NCBI GenBank assembly: GCA_028279365.1
Contig: JANQNX010000016.1
Span: forward strand, 82,017 to 146,016
Reading direction: 5' to 3'
Source of the DNA: Gammaproteobacteria bacterium
GTDB lineage: Bacteria; Pseudomonadota; Gammaproteobacteria; Eutrophobiales; Eutrophobiaceae
Length of the DNA: 64,000 nucleotides
Shown here: positions 40,600-47,095 of the stretch, piece after piece
How the letters are laid out: every line of letters begins with the position of its first letter
How positions within the stretch are numbered: the stretch's first letter is position 1
Translations under genes and position numbers: made by a program
The notes under the pieces: model-generated
The model's database searches: none
What the model was told of the DNA's origin: nothing
Seen by the model: the letters and a program-made list of their open reading frames with translations, nothing else

Positions 40600-41331
40600 T
40601 TGACTATGTTCATAGTGCACGCGTTTGAGACTCTTGTCATGATGCATATCGTGACGGGCAGTGTCGGCCTTGTGAGTTTATGGATACCGCTGCTGACTAA
40701 AAAAGGGAATAAACTGCATAAAAAAAGCGGCCTGATCTTTGTTTATTCCATGCTGGCAACCGGTACGATTGCAACCGGTATCAGTACCTGTACTCTACTC
40801 GCACCCGTGGACACGCATCCACATTTACTCAATCACCCTGACTTTGGTGATGGGCAAACAATCAGAGTGATCTTCGGCTGGATGATGCTATATCTCGCCT
40901 TCCTGACAATCAACCTCGCCTGGTATGGCTGGCGTTGCGTAACAACGAAAAACGATAGAAAAGCCAACCGCCGATGGGAGCAGAATATCTCTCAAGTCAT
41001 ACTATTAATACTGTCACTCAATGCCATGTACCATGGCTTGGTGAATGATGTGTTGCTGGTCGCCGGGATTTCCTTTGTCGGTATTGCCACCGTCGCGACG
41101 AACTTATGGTTTCTCTATAAACCTAAAGCCAAACCTATCGACTGGTTATTGGAACATATTAAAGGATTAGTCGGCGCAGGGATTTCAGTCTACACGGCCT
41201 TTCTTGCATTTGGTGCAGTCAGATTATTACCGGAAGCGGCATTAACACCTTTTCTTTGGTCAATACCTTTAATTACAGGATTAACAATAATTATTTACCA
41301 GCAATATCAAGTAAAACGTAAAACTGCATAA
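40600..41331 (+). CDS. Polytopic membrane protein (6 predicted TM, unknown function)
   Basis: Hydrophobic segments throughout. Divergent from the P450 gene with a 60-bp gap. Confidence 0.45.
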   Translation: MTMFIVHAFETLVMMHIVTGSVGLVSLWIPLLTKKGNKLHKKSGLIFVYSMLATGTIATGISTCTLLAPVDTHPHLLNHPDFGDGQTIRVIFGWMMLYLAFLTINLAWYGWRCVTTKNDRKANRRWEQNISQVILLILSLNAMYHGLVNDVLLVAGISFVGIATVATNLWFLYKPKAKPIDWLLEHIKGLVGAGISVYTAFLAFGAVRLLPEAALTPFLWSIPLITGLTIIIYQQYQVKRKTA

Positions 41332-41373
41332 TATTATGTAAATAGTACTTATATTTTCCAAAAAAATTAGTAA

Positions 41374-43665
41374 ATGGCCGACTACGATTTTAAAGCATTA
41401 TCATTTTGGGAATTCGAGCAAATTTCAAGGGATTTGCTTAGAAATGCGTTAAATATTGATTTTGAATCATTCAAGTCAGGTAAAGATCAAGGCATAGATC
41501 TTAGACATGCATCTGACAATAAAGGGGAAATCATAGCTCAATGCAAACATTATGCTAATTCAACTTATTCGGATCTTAAAAATACAATTAAGAAAGAAAA
41601 AGTTAAAATAGATAAATTAAAACCCAATAGATACATACTAATAACATCGTTAGGTCTGACGACAAAAAACAAAGAAGAAATAAAGTCAATATTAGGTAAA
41701 CACCTTATCTATACAAAAGATATCGTTACAAGAGAGACTCTAAATGGTTGGCTTGTTGATTTTCCGAAAATTGAAAGATCATATATAAAATTATGGGCTA
41801 CTACTGGAGTAGCTTTAAATCAGATTATAAAAAGTCGAATATTCAATTATTCTCTCTCTCAAATTGAAGAATTAGAAACAAAAATTAAGTACTTTGTAAA
41901 AAATCAATCGTTCGACGAATCAATCAAAATATTACAAGCTCAAAAGTTTTGTATTATTGCTGGCATACCCGGAATAGGAAAAACAACATTAGCTGAAATG
42001 CTATTAGTAGATTTTTTACGTCGAGATTTTGAGCCAATAGTAATCACTAGTGATATTGAAGATGCATTTGACGTCTTCGATAAGGATGCAAAGAGAATAT
42101 ATTATTATGACGATTTTCTTGGTCAGACTGGTCTGGAACAAAAATTAAATAAAAACGAAGATGCCAGAATCGTAGAGTTCTGCAAGCTATGTAGAAAAAC
42201 AAAAAACTCTTATTTCATACTAACAACAAGAGAATATATTTTAAATCAGGCAAAGGCCACATATGAGAAACTGGAAAAATCAGGAATAGATAAAAGAAAA
42301 TGTGTGATTGATCTGAAAAGCTATAGTGATCTTGAAAAAAGCAAAGTTCTTTATAATCACATTTACCATAGAAAACTACCTGACAAATATAAAAAAGCTC
42401 TTTTAAAAGATCATGGATATTTAAAAATAATTGATCATAAATCTTTTAATCCTAGAGTCATAGAATGGATGGTAGATTCTGAAATGATTTCAGATATTCC
42501 GCCCGAAGATTACCTAGACAGCTTTATTTATAGATTAAACAATCCTTCTGCAATCTGGTCACATGCATTTAACAATCAAATATCTGACCATGCGAGACAC
42601 TTAGTTATGAGCTTGCTTACGTGTTCTAGATTTGCTTATTTGAGTGATTGTAAAAAGGTGTTTGAGAATTTACGGCATTATTTATCTAATAAGTACAATT
42701 TCGGAATGACTGCAAATGAATTTAATACTGCTTTAAAAGAAGTCGAAGGAAACTTTATTAGCGTAAGTTTAGTAAACAATCAGCAAATCATACATTTCCA
42801 TAACCCTTCTATCATCGATTATGTGTCATATTATTTATCTGAAAATACTGAAATAGTACAAGATATTATTTCTTCGTTTACTCACTTTGATCAATTCATT
42901 AATTTATGGAATATATTTACAAATTTTGAAAAAAACCCATTGCTGCATGAAGATGTTAAAGACATATTTATGTCTTGTTTAGCTAAACATTATGGTACTG
43001 ATGGAATCAATCTTACAAGATATAACAATATTATCGGCAAACCAATTTACGCATATTCATCTTCAAGCATTGAGATCCAAGTCATTATTGCATTGAATCT
43101 TGAACTAGATAACTACAATCACTCTTTTATTCAAAATACAAAAGAAATAGTTGACGATTATTTTACTAACATGGGTATAGAAGTAATTTGGTCACGAGTG
43201 AAGCAATTATTAATTGATCTGGAAAATAAAAAAGAAGAACTGCAACTAAACATAGACAACTATCTTATAAAGTCCGTCAATTTACTATCAGAAAACTTAA
43301 CTCAAATAAATGATTACAAACAGTTAGCAGATATATCTAAAATATCAAATGTAACAAAAGATATTATTGATGAAAAAATACAAATGATTGAACAAGATTT
43401 AATTGCTGGGTTTGAAGATGAAGTCGAATTCCATAGAAATGATAATGATGTAAGTGAATTACAAGATTGTCTTAGTGATATAGAAGATATTGAAATTATA
43501 TTTGATTTTAATTTATATGAACAGAAAGAATATATAGAAACTATTCTTAATGAATTAGGCGATCCAGATGAAATTTATAATGATGAATACAGTAATATAT
43601 CAACTAAATCTAGCACAAACACTAACACTTCTGAGATTATAGATATATTTAATACGCTAGAGTAA
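41374..43665 (+). CDS. Mrr-like PD-(D/E)xK nuclease domain fused to STAND/NACHT-like P-loop NTPase (candidate antiphage protein)
   Basis: N-terminus FEQISRDLLRNALNIDFESFKSGKDQGIDLRHAS ... IIAQCKHY parallels the Mrr catalytic core (GDGGIDL ... QCKRY). Walker A IIAGIPGIGKTT and Walker B IYYYDDFLG. C-terminal helical/repeat region of about 360 aa. Confidence 0.65.
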   Translation: MADYDFKALSFWEFEQISRDLLRNALNIDFESFKSGKDQGIDLRHASDNKGEIIAQCKHYANSTYSDLKNTIKKEKVKIDKLKPNRYILITSLGLTTKNKEEIKSILGKHLIYTKDIVTRETLNGWLVDFPKIERSYIKLWATTGVALNQIIKSRIFNYSLSQIEELETKIKYFVKNQSFDESIKILQAQKFCIIAGIPGIGKTTLAEMLLVDFLRRDFEPIVITSDIEDAFDVFDKDAKRIYYYDDFLGQTGLEQKLNKNEDARIVEFCKLCRKTKNSYFILTTREYILNQAKATYEKLEKSGIDKRKCVIDLKSYSDLEKSKVLYNHIYHRKLPDKYKKALLKDHGYLKIIDHKSFNPRVIEWMVDSEMISDIPPEDYLDSFIYRLNNPSAIWSHAFNNQISDHARHLVMSLLTCSRFAYLSDCKKVFENLRHYLSNKYNFGMTANEFNTALKEVEGNFISVSLVNNQQIIHFHNPSIIDYVSYYLSENTEIVQDIISSFTHFDQFINLWNIFTNFEKNPLLHEDVKDIFMSCLAKHYGTDGINLTRYNNIIGKPIYAYSSSSIEIQVIIALNLELDNYNHSFIQNTKEIVDDYFTNMGIEVIWSRVKQLLIDLENKKEELQLNIDNYLIKSVNLLSENLTQINDYKQLADISKISNVTKDIIDEKIQMIEQDLIAGFEDEVEFHRNDNDVSELQDCLSDIEDIEIIFDFNLYEQKEYIETILNELGDPDEIYNDEYSNISTKSSTNTNTSEIIDIFNTLE

Positions 43666-43909
43666 AGATTTTCATTACCATATTAGCTAATAACTTCTAC
43701 CTCTTTCTCATTTAGCCCCAGTAAGCAGTGTAGCTCATTCGCAAAACCGAGACCCGCTTCGGCATGGATATTAAATATGCTCTACGCCCATCTCTCGTAA
43801 ATCCCCTTTTTAATAAAACCAAAAGGATCAGTATCGATTGAAAAGCAGTTCATTTGATCAAATTGGGAATTTAATTTTTAATCAACGTGTAGCTATCTAT
43901 AGAAAACCA

Positions 43910-44278
43910 TCACTGCCACTGACTAGCATCATTACATCTTGGATCGGATATTATTTTTTTAGATAATGATGCTTCATAAGCGAGGCCAGCGCATTGACCA
44001 ACCTTTGTTCCCCATAGTGTGCCGTCTTTCGGCTGTATCATGACATCAGGGATTTGTTCTTCAACCTCCTTTAAACATATCCGTGTTGCTGATGCGGCGG
44101 CTTCTTCGCATTCAACGGCAGTCACATCAAAACACTGCCTGAAATATTGTTCGGAATTGCAAAACGCGGCGGGTAGTGCGCTCTTCATCCCGGTAATCCA
44201 ATCCTCTTTTTTCACTTCCTGAGAATGAACAGTGATAGAAAACAAAACTAATAAAAATAAGACGATATTTTTCATCAT
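43910..44278 (-). CDS. Small secreted Cys-rich protein (6 Cys) of unknown function
   Basis: Signal peptide MMKNIVLFLLVLFSITVHSQ plus six cysteines in about 100 aa. Confidence 0.4.
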   Translation of the reverse strand: MMKNIVLFLLVLFSITVHSQEVKKEDWITGMKSALPAAFCNSEQYFRQCFDVTAVECEEAAASATRICLKEVEEQIPDVMIQPKDGTLWGTKVGQCAGLAYEASLSKKIISDPRCNDASQWQ

Positions 44279-44326
44279 AGCGAATCCTTCATATTAAGAG
44301 TTATAGTTTAGGAACAGCTCGTTTTG

Positions 44327-45382
44327 TTATTCTCTGACCTTTGGTTCACCTGTCTCAGCATCAATCCTGTCAAGAGATGGTCCCTCATATTGAGCTAAAA
44401 TTAAATCTACAACAGCTTCGCCGTATTTAGCAAACCAGAAGTCCCCCATCTGTTTTAGTTTTTTAATATTTGACTGACTAATATCATCCATGGCGTCATC
44501 AGGTGGATTAGGTAAGCCAGGCTGTTTTTTCATTTCAGTATTAACACGAATATAATTGCCTTGCTTTAAAAGGGTATACGCTTGATAGGCGACAACTCTT
44601 TCATCTGTTAACAAGTCAAGTATATGACCTTTTGTAAACCATTCTAAAGCGCCCCATTTTTGTGACTCTGGACCATTTATTTTTCTGGTGCGATATCCCG
44701 TTCCCACAGACAATACGCGTAAATCCTGAATGTGTTCAGTTGACCAAATCTTGATGGCTTAGGCAATTACACACATTGTAGGATTATTAGCTGTCACCCC
44801 TCCATCCACCAGCCAAAATGCACTCTCAATATTTTTCATTGCTAATTCTTTGGTGGGGAAATAGGTTGGTGCAGCACTGGACGCATCTGCTACCTGCCAA
44901 GACTGTAACTTGCGATGTGTCTTATCGGTTGATTTAATAACGACAGGTTTTCGGCGTTCTATTCCATAGGTTACAACCAAAACATGTTTGTTGTTTGCTA
45001 CATTGCTTAACTTTGCTGAACCCAGTTTCTGTTCCAGTAATTTTGACTTTCCTTTTGCTTCATATTTTGGCGCATTGATACCATCCCATTCAAACCAGCC
45101 TCTATTATCGGAAAATATTTTTTTTGCATTTTGATAGTTATATAGCTTATTAATATCCGCCATCGCCATATCAGTCGTAGCTAATGCAAGCGCGATAATA
45201 CTTCCCGTACTGGTTCCTGCATAAAAATGCACACAATCGCGTAAACTTTTATTATGGTCAGTTTTAAGCTTGTTCTCAACATGAGTAAGAAACTGGGTCG
45301 TAGCAGCTCCGCGTATACCACCGCCATCCAATGAAAGAATTAATTTTGACATATTACCTCCTTGTTTAAATAATCTTAGCAA
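44327..45382 (-). pseudogene. Patatin-like phospholipase interrupted by one in-frame TAA (44759-44761)
   Basis: Upstream part carries the oxyanion hole DGGGIRG, the nucleophile GTSTG and the catalytic DGG. Translation through the stop continues in frame (...PTMCVIA*AIKIWSTEHIQDLRVLSVGTGYR...) into the conserved patatin C-terminus (SVGTG). Both ORFs share frame (starts 45382 and 44713, both 1 mod 3). Confidence 0.7.
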
Positions 45383-45589
45383 TAAGATTTTAAGTGATCG
45401 CCATAATATAACATTGCATAATCAATTTATGGCTTTTCACTAACAGATTAATACTAACTGGTTATAAATCAACTAAATCATCATCGAACTGATGTAAAGT
45501 AATGCCAGTTATATAAACAGAAATTCGGGTTTTTAAATTATGTGCAGTATTAAAATGAGTAAAAATCTTTGCACTATACATAAAAGCAT

Positions 45590-47095
45590 TTACAGAAATA
45601 CATCAGGATCGGGTGCAACTTCATCCAGTATCTTCGCTGATGAAATCACGCCGGGTACGCCGGCACCGGGATGTGTACCGGCACCCACCAAAAACAGATT
45701 TTCCAGTTCTTCGCTTTTATTATGTGGTCGAAACCAGGCGCTTTGTAATAGCTGCGGCTCCAGACCAAACGCGGCACCATTAACCGATAACAAGCGCGTT
45801 TCAAAATCCTTGGGTGTCATGACGAATGATGTGGTCAGATGTTTGCCTAGCTCGGGCAAAACAGTTTGTTCTAATCTCTCTTCAATCGCCTTACGATAGG
45901 TTTCGCTATGCACCTCCCAATCGACGCCGCTTTCCAGATGTGGCACTGGTGATAATACATAAAACGCATCATGCCCTTCCGGCGCCAGACTTTTATCCGT
46001 CGCCGTGGGACGATGTAGATATAAACTAAAATCTTCTGCGAGATGTTTATGTTTAAAGATATCTTTTAATAAGCCTTCATATCTCGGACCAAGCAGGATT
46101 AAGTGGTGGTACACATCGTCATATTGTTTGTCAGTTCCAAAATACCAGACGAATAAACTCATGGAGTAACGCGCACGTTTCAGTTTTTTGGGTTTCCAGC
46201 GTTTTGCCATTCGATTACCAAGTAGATGTTTATAGGTCCAGGCCGAATCGGCATTGGATACAACAATATCCGCGTCTATTTGTTCACCATCTTTCAATTT
46301 TACACCGGTCGCACGGTCCCCTTCATGCGTAATGCACTTCACTTCTGAGTTATATCTAATCTTGCCGCCCAAACCGTCAATCAATCCAACCATGCCTTTT
46401 ACCAAGGACCCCATGCCACCCATGGCATAGTGCACACCAAACTTACGTTCAAGATGCGCAATCAGGCAATAGTAAGCCGTCGTCGTCATCGGATTACCGC
46501 CAATCAATAATGGATGAAAACTAAACACGATTCGTAAAGCCGGATCGGTAAAATAATCACACACAGTTTTAAATACCGTACGATGTCCACCCAGTCTTAC
46601 CAAATCCGGCGCGGTACTTAGAGTAAACGGCAAGCTATGAAACGGTTGCGCGGCCAATTCTTCAAACGCGACTTCGTAAATATCACCACTAAGTTTGATA
46701 AAACGATTGAACCCATCCAGATCGTCGGGGTTAAACTTACAGACTTCTTCGCGCATTTTTTCGATATCGCCGCTATAACTAAACACGCGACCATCATCAA
46801 ACCGAATTTGATAAAACGGCTCCATAGGTATCAACTCGACATCGTCCGAGACTTTCTTGCCGCAGAGTTCCCACAGTTCATCAAACACAAACGGCGCCGT
46901 GACAATCGTTGGGCCGCGATCGAAGATATAACCGTCACGTTCTTCGACAAAGGCGCGACCGCCCGGCGCTTCCAGTCTTTCAATCACGGTGACAGCATAA
47001 CCTCTGGCGCCAAGTCGAATCGCTGCGGCCAAACCGCCAAAGCCGCTACCTATGATGACAGCATGGGCTTTGTTTTTAGAACTTTCATTTCCCAT
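45590..47095 (-). CDS. crtI: Phytoene desaturase
   Basis: N-terminal FAD fold AVIIGSGFGGLAAAIRL ... PGGRAFV and C-terminal CrtI-family signature (GAGTHPGAGVPGV). Confidence 0.88.
   Translation of the reverse strand: MGNESSKNKAHAVIIGSGFGGLAAAIRLGARGYAVTVIERLEAPGGRAFVEERDGYIFDRGPTIVTAPFVFDELWELCGKKVSDDVELIPMEPFYQIRFDDGRVFSYSGDIEKMREEVCKFNPDDLDGFNRFIKLSGDIYEVAFEELAAQPFHSLPFTLSTAPDLVRLGGHRTVFKTVCDYFTDPALRIVFSFHPLLIGGNPMTTTAYYCLIAHLERKFGVHYAMGGMGSLVKGMVGLIDGLGGKIRYNSEVKCITHEGDRATGVKLKDGEQIDADIVVSNADSAWTYKHLLGNRMAKRWKPKKLKRARYSMSLFVWYFGTDKQYDDVYHHLILLGPRYEGLLKDIFKHKHLAEDFSLYLHRPTATDKSLAPEGHDAFYVLSPVPHLESGVDWEVHSETYRKAIEERLEQTVLPELGKHLTTSFVMTPKDFETRLLSVNGAAFGLEPQLLQSAWFRPHNKSEELENLFLVGAGTHPGAGVPGVISSAKILDEVAPDPDVFL

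Follow-up and report, generated by a model that had tools for sequence, protein, structure and literature searches.

A Mrr-nSTAND3 protein of the candidate defence family PDC-S73, a putative Avs-like receptor, in a low-GC insert of a gammaproteobacterial photosynthesis gene cluster

The stretch of gammaproteobacterial DNA analysed here (contig JANQNX010000016.1; 64,000 nucleotides, hereafter the window) carries on its plus strand, at 41374..43665, a gene whose product of 763 amino acids (aa) is, in our judgement, likely to be a self-contained antiviral STAND receptor of the Avs-like type, made of a single polypeptide and belonging to the family catalogued as PDC-S73. An earlier note, made from the letters of the window, had proposed at this place an undescribed antiphage protein composed of a Mrr-like nuclease, a STAND/NACHT-like nucleoside triphosphatase (NTPase) and a C-terminal repeat/helical region of about 360 aa. 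Our analysis supports the logic of a nuclease effector followed by a STAND switch and a sensor, and corrects the novelty of the protein, the family of its NTPase and the description of its C-terminal part.

The gene is real, and its open reading frame is the one which had been proposed. At the composition of the gene (40% A and 31% T, which corresponds to a stop probability of 0.088 per codon), a frame remaining open over 763 codons would arise by chance with a probability of about 10^-30.6, and the other five frames contain from 42 to 104 stops each at the same place. The motifs quoted by the earlier note are all present in the product: FE (aa 14-15), GKDQGIDL (aa 36-43) and QCKHY (aa 56-60) in the nuclease part, GIPGIGKTT (aa 197-205) and YYYDDF (aa 243-248) in the NTPase part. 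They are not chance look-alikes, because key residues in them are invariant or nearly so in an alignment of the query with 64 homologues, each of them 31-47% identical to it, the 65 sequences having an average identity of about 37%.

A PADLOC search, which had been recommended, placed the protein from end to end in the candidate family PDC-S73 (PDLC05079 of PADLOC-DB v2.0.0), with an E-value of 3.6e-156 and a score of 520 bits, aa 1-759 of the query being aligned with positions 1-749 of the 752 positions of the profile. The same profile is matched by all the relatives tested (45/45). Judged by this match, the protein adds a divergent new member to a catalogued candidate family and does not found a novel type of system; it is an outlier within the family, its nearest relatives being only 48-49% identical. 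The term "undescribed" has thus to be abandoned, the more so as Pfam already has a named entry for the NTPase family, which is also present in the characterised Avs5. The gene and the parts of its product are the following:

41374..43665, plus strand: complete PDC-S73-family gene (Mrr_cat, nSTAND3, variable C-terminal region), ATG start, 763 aa and stop
41374..41853, plus strand: Mrr-type PD-(D/E)xK nuclease domain, aa 1-160, from profile match, conserved residues and fold
41416-41418, 41497-41499 and 41539-41547, plus strand: predicted catalytic residues E15, D42 and Q56-C-K58, chosen from published knowledge of the Mrr family
41893..42369, plus strand: nSTAND3 nucleotide-binding domain, aa 174-332, from Pfam nSTAND3 and invariant columns
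41962-41985, plus strand: Walker A of the nSTAND3 domain, G197-T204
42100-42114, plus strand: Walker B of the nSTAND3 domain, Y243-D247
42223-42231, plus strand: sensor-1 motif of the nSTAND3 domain, T284-T285-R286
42370..42903, plus strand: helical domain and winged-helix domain of the NOD module, aa 333-510, from AlphaFold2 secondary structure and conservation
42904..43569, plus strand: fast-evolving, mainly helical C-terminal region, putative sensor, aa 511-732, with one beta-hairpin pair at aa 547-561
43570..43662, plus strand: disordered linker and terminal helix, aa 733-763, with the motif I755-x-S-[ML]-F759-x-[TS]-L762

The assignment of the N-terminal domain is supported by three kinds of evidence. 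Searching with hidden Markov models (HMMs), Pfam Mrr_cat (PF04471) matches aa 9-108 with 27.9 bits for a cutoff of 21 (E 2.7e-6), and it is matched by 45/45 relatives at E <= 1e-3. In the family alignment, D38, G40, D42, Q56 and K58 are invariant (65/65) and E15 is conserved in 64 of the 65 sequences, which together form the constellation known from Mrr: a glutamate in helix 1, an aspartate and the QxK element. Finally, in the AlphaFold2 model built on this alignment (mean predicted local distance difference test score, pLDDT, of 83.9; predicted template modelling score, pTM, of 0.70), aa 1-110 adopt an alpha-beta-beta-alpha-beta core which is prolonged by a helical extension to about aa 160; the domain has the restriction-endonuclease-like alpha-beta-beta-beta-alpha-beta fold. 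The N-terminus is therefore best described as a Mrr-type PD-(D/E)xK nuclease with predicted activity, as had been proposed from the motifs.

The second module is an NTPase of the STAND class. Pfam nSTAND3 (PF20720) covers aa 174-332 over its entire length (model positions 1-155 of 155), with E 7.5e-53 and 178.8 bits for a cutoff of 27.2, and the combination of Mrr_cat with nSTAND3 recurs in 45/45 relatives. In the 65 sequences, which all keep the patterns GxPGxGKT, hhhDD and TTR, G197, P199, G200, G202 and K203 of the Walker A, D247 of the Walker B and the whole T284-T285-R286 motif are invariant, and so are N328-H329, P360-R361 and the motif F-H-N-P-S-x-x-D at aa 475-482. In EfAvs5, ZAR1 and Apaf-1, the arginine of the TTR motif reads the gamma-phosphate of ATP (PMC11897194). 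The (near) invariance of E15, D38, D42, Q56xK58, both Walker motifs and TTR, at a mean identity of about 37%, argues that both active sites are under selection. Downstream of the nucleotide-binding domain (NBD), a beta-hairpin wing at aa 462-475 directly precedes the conserved F-H-N-P-S-x-x-D motif, and by analogy with the domain description of EfAvs5 we assign aa 333-510 to a helical domain (HD) followed by a winged-helix domain (WHD), which gives the NBD-HD-WHD order of a NOD module.

Comparing the full-length AlphaFold2 model with the PDB by Foldseek, the top matches, all with a probability of 1.00, were human SAMD9 (9zjs_B, E 1.3e-7), EfAvs5 (9jap_A, E 1.3e-7), the AVAST5 filament (9nc9, E 2.5e-7) and Avs4 (8dgf_B, E 3e-7), followed by RPP1, Apaf-1 and NLRC4. 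The nSTAND3 match, the TTR motif, the domain layout and these structural matches support a STAND NTPase and not a housekeeping AAA+ protein. "NACHT-like" was, on the other hand, imprecise. No NACHT match was obtained in the query even at E <= 1, Pfam recognised neither NB-ARC nor any repeat family in it, NPHP3_N stayed below threshold on the P-loop (17.7 bits for a cutoff of 24.8), and the NTPase belongs to nSTAND3.

A Mrr-type nuclease joined to a P-loop domain could also be understood as a restriction enzyme of the Mrr or type IV kind dependent on nucleoside triphosphates. Its P-loop module would then power or license the cutting of DNA, and its C-terminus would directly recognise DNA or the modifications it carries, with no sensing of phage proteins. 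The Mrr_cat domain itself favours this interpretation, as does the public annotation, some relatives being named "restriction endonuclease" in NCBI/UniRef and others "nSTAND3 domain-containing NTPase". The NTPase argues against it, since by nSTAND3, TTR, WHD and the folds of Avs5, SAMD9, Avs4 and NLRs it is of the STAND type and not of the McrB or helicase type. Pfam finds no Mrr_N or other DNA-reader domain either; Mrr_N is not matched even at E <= 1, and Mrr_cat begins already at aa 9, which departs from the layout of the E. coli Mrr-like type IV enzymes, where Mrr_N, a winged-helix domain binding DNA, precedes Mrr_cat. With the points on sensor divergence and gene neighbours given below, we regard a restriction enzyme as improbable and an Avs-like receptor as the better reading.

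The C-terminal region differs from the rest of the protein by its rate of evolution. The mean identity of the relatives to the query amounts to 48% in the nuclease, 54% in the NBD and 38% in the HD/WHD, and falls to 16% over aa 511-730. BLAST finds the last 253 aa only in the approximately 20 closest relatives, at 24-30% identity (their first 510 aa are 48-58% identical), and does not detect them in 90 other relatives, although the first 510 aa of these are 41-47% identical. Such divergence is the pattern which would be expected of a ligand-binding sensor engaged in an arms race, in agreement with the sensor role proposed for this end of the protein; so extreme a divergence would also suit a protein arms race better than the reading of DNA marks by a restriction enzyme. 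Of the "repeat/helical region of about 360 aa" initially described, the helical character stands, but aa 333-510 (about 180 aa) are conserved and form part of the NOD module, which leaves a variable stretch of only about 250 aa, and repeats were not recognised: no Pfam repeat family (TPR, Sel1, LRR, WD40) occurs in 45/45 members. Shuffling of the sensor among relatives was considered and rejected, as C-terminal and N-terminal similarities showed no clear discordance and only a steep divergence (Spearman 0.18, p 0.08).

The extreme C-terminus presents another character. The terminal motif is nearly invariant although the preceding 220 aa or so are hypervariable, with its isoleucine in 60/65, its phenylalanine in 63/65 and its leucine in 57/65 sequences. 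It follows a linker with pLDDT below 50 at aa 733-749 of the full-length model, which is strongly acidic in most relatives (median of 30% D+E across the family). The tail helix has a pLDDT of about 76-80 in the full-length model and of about 44-56 in a model lacking the N-terminal half, a comparison confounded by the different depths of the two alignments; the models thus give a weak hint that the helix may dock on the N-terminal half, be it the nuclease or the NBD. It is conceivable, if rather doubtful, that PDC-S73 forms a distinct and unnamed Avs family, having at once a compact non-TPR sensor of about 250 aa, a trigger unlike those of the characterised Avs and, in the tail, a family-specific regulatory element. 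The tail would then either restrain the nuclease or NBD as an autoinhibitory latch, or serve assembly, much as EfAvs5 requires its own C-terminal tail for the bundling of filaments.

From the analogies with Avs4 and Avs8A (Mrr joined to STAND), Avs5 (nSTAND3) and Avs7 (transition from a monomer to a nuclease tetramer), a mechanism can be proposed. In the uninfected cell, the protein would be an autoinhibited monomer with a nucleotide in the nSTAND3 pocket. Upon infection, aa 511-732 would bind a phage-derived trigger, most likely a protein, and this binding would free the NOD module (aa 174-510) for an ATP-dependent oligomerisation, either into a tetramer like those of Avs3, Avs4 and Avs7 or into a filament like that of Avs5. 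In the assembly, the Mrr-type nuclease domains at the N-termini would meet and form active dimers or tetramers, which would cut DNA indiscriminately; the phage would be stopped and the cell probably killed or arrested, in an abortive infection. As regards the trigger, the oligomeric state, the nature of the substrate as DNA and the abortive course of infection, the scheme is taken over from the analogous systems.

Relatives of the protein are widespread. An exhaustive HMMER scan of 1.84 billion representatives of 50%-identity clusters returned 2,223 matches at E <= 1e-30, so that about 2,200 clusters share the architecture, and the number rises to 3,963 at E <= 1e-3; of the cluster matches listed, nearly all are 740-800 aa long. 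In addition, 457 relatives were found in 185,579 species represented by one genome each. The phyla concerned include Acidobacteriota, Proteobacteria, Planctomycetota, Firmicutes, Bacteroidota, Cyanobacteria/Melainabacteria, Verrucomicrobiota, Nitrospirota and Chlorobiota. Plasmids carry relatives too (54, of which 31 are conjugative), and so do 3 phage records.

The genomic context of the relatives was analysed in 80 loci, comprising 644 neighbour proteins. Of these proteins, 554 are singletons, and even the largest cluster of neighbours is confined to 6 loci: PDC-S73 is a single-gene system without obligate partner. The 147 immediate neighbours were scanned with PADLOC at E <= 1e-5 and match 448 models, an occurrence list and not a measured enrichment. 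Recurrent or otherwise conspicuous among them are AriA/OLD-type ATPases, PDC-S05 (RhuM), PDC-S06, IetA/IetS and Shedu SduA, besides a type I methyltransferase, GmrSD, integrases, resolvases and transposases. The expectation of a defence neighbourhood is therefore borne out for the relatives elsewhere, whose genes adjoin both defence and mobile-element genes. The gene has a lower content of G and C (GC) than its flanks in 66 of 72 loci (median difference of -8.7 points). Solitary inserts are also what one finds for the three nearest homologues, whose neighbours are toxin-antitoxin genes, AAA_15/21 ATPases or a WYL regulator. In several genomes (L049, 6292-9984; L036, 7920-9782; L027, 1149-3452; L063, 1193-2188), the PDC-S73 gene lies directly downstream of defence genes on the same strand, the upstream genes being IetA/IetS, an AriA/OLD-type ATPase, PDC-S06 and PDC-S05/RhuM, which recur in 2-6 loci each; these pairings could be chance neighbours within islands or preferred ones.

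The neighbourhoods bear on two of the alternatives. The type I methyltransferase, GmrSD and ResIII helicases adjoining some loci would be in keeping with a restriction enzyme, but no methyltransferase partner is conserved in the 80 loci. The protein might also belong to a module for conflict or addiction between mobile elements, serving the competition or stabilisation of plasmids or islands and triggered by rival elements or by host stress instead of a phage. The frequency of the family on plasmids, its presence in a temperate Clostridium phage, and neighbours including toxin-antitoxin genes (HicAB, HipA), integrases and transposases are what such a module would lead one to expect. Genuine antiphage genes, however, typically show these features as well, phage-defence families prevail among the neighbours, and all the characterised Avs relatives respond to phage proteins. 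We consequently see little likelihood in an addiction module and retain the antiviral receptor.

In the window itself, the gene is part of an insert, whose components other than the STAND gene are the following:

41332..45589, no strand: low-GC (32.7%) insert of 4,258 bp, without counterpart in three related contigs
43910..44278, minus strand: NttA-like secreted protein of 122 aa with signal peptide, from Pfam NttA (a Legionella type II secretion substrate), E 8.7e-14
44327..45382, minus strand: CapV-like patatin phospholipase of the CBASS effector type, from the PADLOC CBASS "Effector: Phospholipase" models, E 9.8e-46

Synteny with related contigs ends at 41327 and restarts at about 45606-45621, and in the related contigs L081, L082 and L085 the gene of a DUF2306 membrane protein and crtI are only 15 nt apart. 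It is because synteny breaks and resumes around it, between genes which are nearly contiguous in the relatives, that we recognise this segment as an insert of 4,258 bp, and a horizontal acquisition of the STAND gene is supported by these sequence comparisons. The GC content of the gene is 28.8%, against 45.3% in the remainder of the window; the value of about 32% given by eye for the island agrees with the 32.7% of the whole insert. Its boundaries show no convincing direct or inverted repeats, tRNA, integrase or Rfam element. In the related contig L083, the DUF2306-crtI spot is occupied by a Na+/H+ exchanger gene, and with the present insert this intergenic site looks like a hot spot for cargo. 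The GC drop begins already in the last 130 nt or so of the DUF2306 gene.

The cargo consists of three genes, coding for the STAND protein, the NttA-like protein, which lies between the two others and has no defence-family match, and the patatin phospholipase. The catalytic dyad of the latter (GxSxG and DGG) is intact, and neither the insert nor the DNA immediately flanking it was found to contain a CD-NTase (cyclase) partner; the patatin is probably a decaying orphan CBASS effector, unless its reading frame suffers from an assembly error. The insert is a tiny and partly decayed defence islet. Upstream of it lie a CrtC-like gene (in synteny with L083) and genes for phytoene synthase, an ATP-grasp protein, a P450 and the DUF2306 membrane protein; downstream lie crtI and genes for a DUF3422 protein, a BchO-like hydrolase and the D and I subunits of Mg-chelatase. 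Judged by homologues of the DUF2306 protein, the host would be a marine gammaproteobacterium with Congregibacter among its relatives.

Several observations weigh against an antiviral receptor, or at least against its function in this genome. The flanks just described form a photosynthesis and carotenoid gene cluster and not a classical defence island, and the only defence-type neighbour, the patatin gene, is broken by one in-frame TAA (44759-44761). The 42 nt which separate the STAND gene from the stop of the DUF2306 gene (40600-41331, same plus strand) contain no recognisable promoter, Shine-Dalgarno sequence or terminator (41332-41373). Concerning the family, PDC entries are computational candidates (PMC11514479), "PDC-S73" appears in no searchable paper, and our literature search found no tested Mrr-nSTAND3 protein. 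Concerning the structure, a separate model of aa 336-763 (pLDDT 87.4) has no significant fold match in the PDB, its top non-significant matches being Avs5 (9nc9_D, E 0.07) and SAMD9 (E 0.13) with TM-scores of about 0.2; because the C-terminus lacks a significant structural relative, its fold suggests no trigger and does not point to a protein as the ligand either. Sequence searches of the PDB with the query and with the family profile gave only P-loop-level or coiled-coil noise and found none of Avs4, Avs5 and SAMD9, so that the Avs analogy rests on fold and Pfam family.

Some of these observations would be explained if the gene were a silent passenger in this genome, a recently acquired copy which is unexpressed or decaying and has no present function. 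The in-frame stop of the adjoining CapV-like gene and its missing CD-NTase partner point this way, as do the upstream region devoid of a promoter-like site or Shine-Dalgarno sequence and a GC content 16.5 points below that of the host, which indicates an unameliorated gene. The intact reading frame of 763 codons, with its very low probability by chance, and the end-to-end match to the family HMM with every invariant residue kept argue for the contrary. The scans for promoters and terminators performed no better than on shuffled controls, and since neither an obvious promoter or Shine-Dalgarno sequence nor an intervening terminator is present, the STAND gene may be expressed by read-through from the DUF2306 gene. 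A silent passenger appears to us a poor bet, and an intact Avs-like receptor remains the probable interpretation.

As a discovery, the protein is an incremental step, since its family had been catalogued before and both the class and the logic by which it works are well established. In a systematic survey of the field, Lee et al. (2026) distinguished 589 STAND clades, 198 of them associated with defence, and characterised Avs7-24 (PMC13581612). PDC-S73, if tested, would enlarge the validated set by an Avs-type receptor which is both widespread and compact; its size of about 765 aa is tractable for structural work. For this genome, it reveals a small defence islet inserted in the photosynthesis gene cluster of a marine phototrophic gammaproteobacterium. 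Interest in the family would grow with knowledge of its trigger, of its state of assembly and of what the conserved tail at the C-terminus does.

Compared with known systems, the protein has no AVAST/Avs, PD-lambda-4 or bNACHT match in PADLOC-DB, for the query at E <= 1 and for the 45 relatives at E <= 1e-3; this database presumably includes models for Avs1-5 (AVAST I-V) and PD-lambda-4 (Avs8), and possibly for bNACHT. Although human SAMD9 is the top structural match of the full-length model, the likeness is limited, the TM-scores being low (0.16-0.20) and the C-terminus alone giving only the non-significant value mentioned above. The sensor and NOD of Avs5 have been reported to cluster with SAMD9, and Avs6 and Avs9 are SAMD9-like families (PMC12680541); the effectors of the SAMD9/Avs6/Avs9 group are AlbA_2 or PNP domains instead of Mrr, and SAMD9 and Avs9 exceed 1,300 aa.

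The nuclease cassette has its closest counterpart in another immune system. A subclade of SPARTA carries a Mrr domain fused to TIR-APAZ (Koopal et al. 2022, PMC9097488), and two Argonaute-associated models of PADLOC, Aga_TIR-PNTD1-PNTD2 (E 9.6e-43) and Aga_REase-TIR-PNTD1-PNTD2 (E 4.5e-30), numbered PDLC02400 and PDLC02416, are matched by aa 3-159 of the query far more strongly than the generic Mrr_cat; the 45/45 relatives tested behave alike. The N-terminal nuclease is thus shared with the Mrr-TIR-APAZ proteins of SPARTA clade S2A, whereas the remainder of the protein is unrelated to them, with no TIR, APAZ or Argonaute partner here. Because the same cassette serves STAND and short-Argonaute systems, the Mrr domain can be regarded as an exchangeable effector module, and its presence in both kinds of sensors illustrates the shuffling of effectors between immune systems.

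Among the STAND proteins, Avs8A (PD-lambda-4A), which also joins a Mrr nuclease to a P-loop STAND NTPase, is the best functional precedent, its ligand-, Mg2+- and ATP-dependent cleavage of double-stranded DNA having been shown experimentally (PMC12236752); Avs8 is, however, a two-gene operon (Avs8A and Avs8B) which senses an HK97-fold capsid protein, while no conserved partner exists here. For the switch itself, Avs7 provides the example of an autoinhibited monomer converted into a nuclease tetramer (PMC13581612). Avs4 shares the N-terminal Mrr-type nuclease on a STAND NTPase and is found by structure (8dgf), but with 1,534 aa it is about twice as long, confirming the remark that the present protein is much shorter; it has an NTPase of a different family and a long TPR sensor which binds the portal protein, and the query presents neither a match to the Avs4 HMM nor a detected TPR.

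Avs5 is the most similar in size, with about 770-830 aa for 763 here, and in the order of effector, NOD and C-terminal sensor. The nSTAND3 domain (PF20720) has been reported in PaAvs5 (9nc9) too, and the TTR motif is common to both. Avs5 defends only with its Walker A, its Walker B and its sensor, and its activation comes about by assembly into filaments. The two differ by the effector, which is a SIR2 NADase in Avs5 and a Mrr nuclease here (without SIR2 match), and by the output, NAD+ depletion in the former and what would be DNA cleavage in the latter; the similarity of the C-termini is non-significant, and no PADLOC Avs model recognises the query. Together, these comparisons show that the architecture is closest to a nSTAND3 chassis of the size of Avs5 bearing a Mrr effector of the Avs4/Avs8 type.

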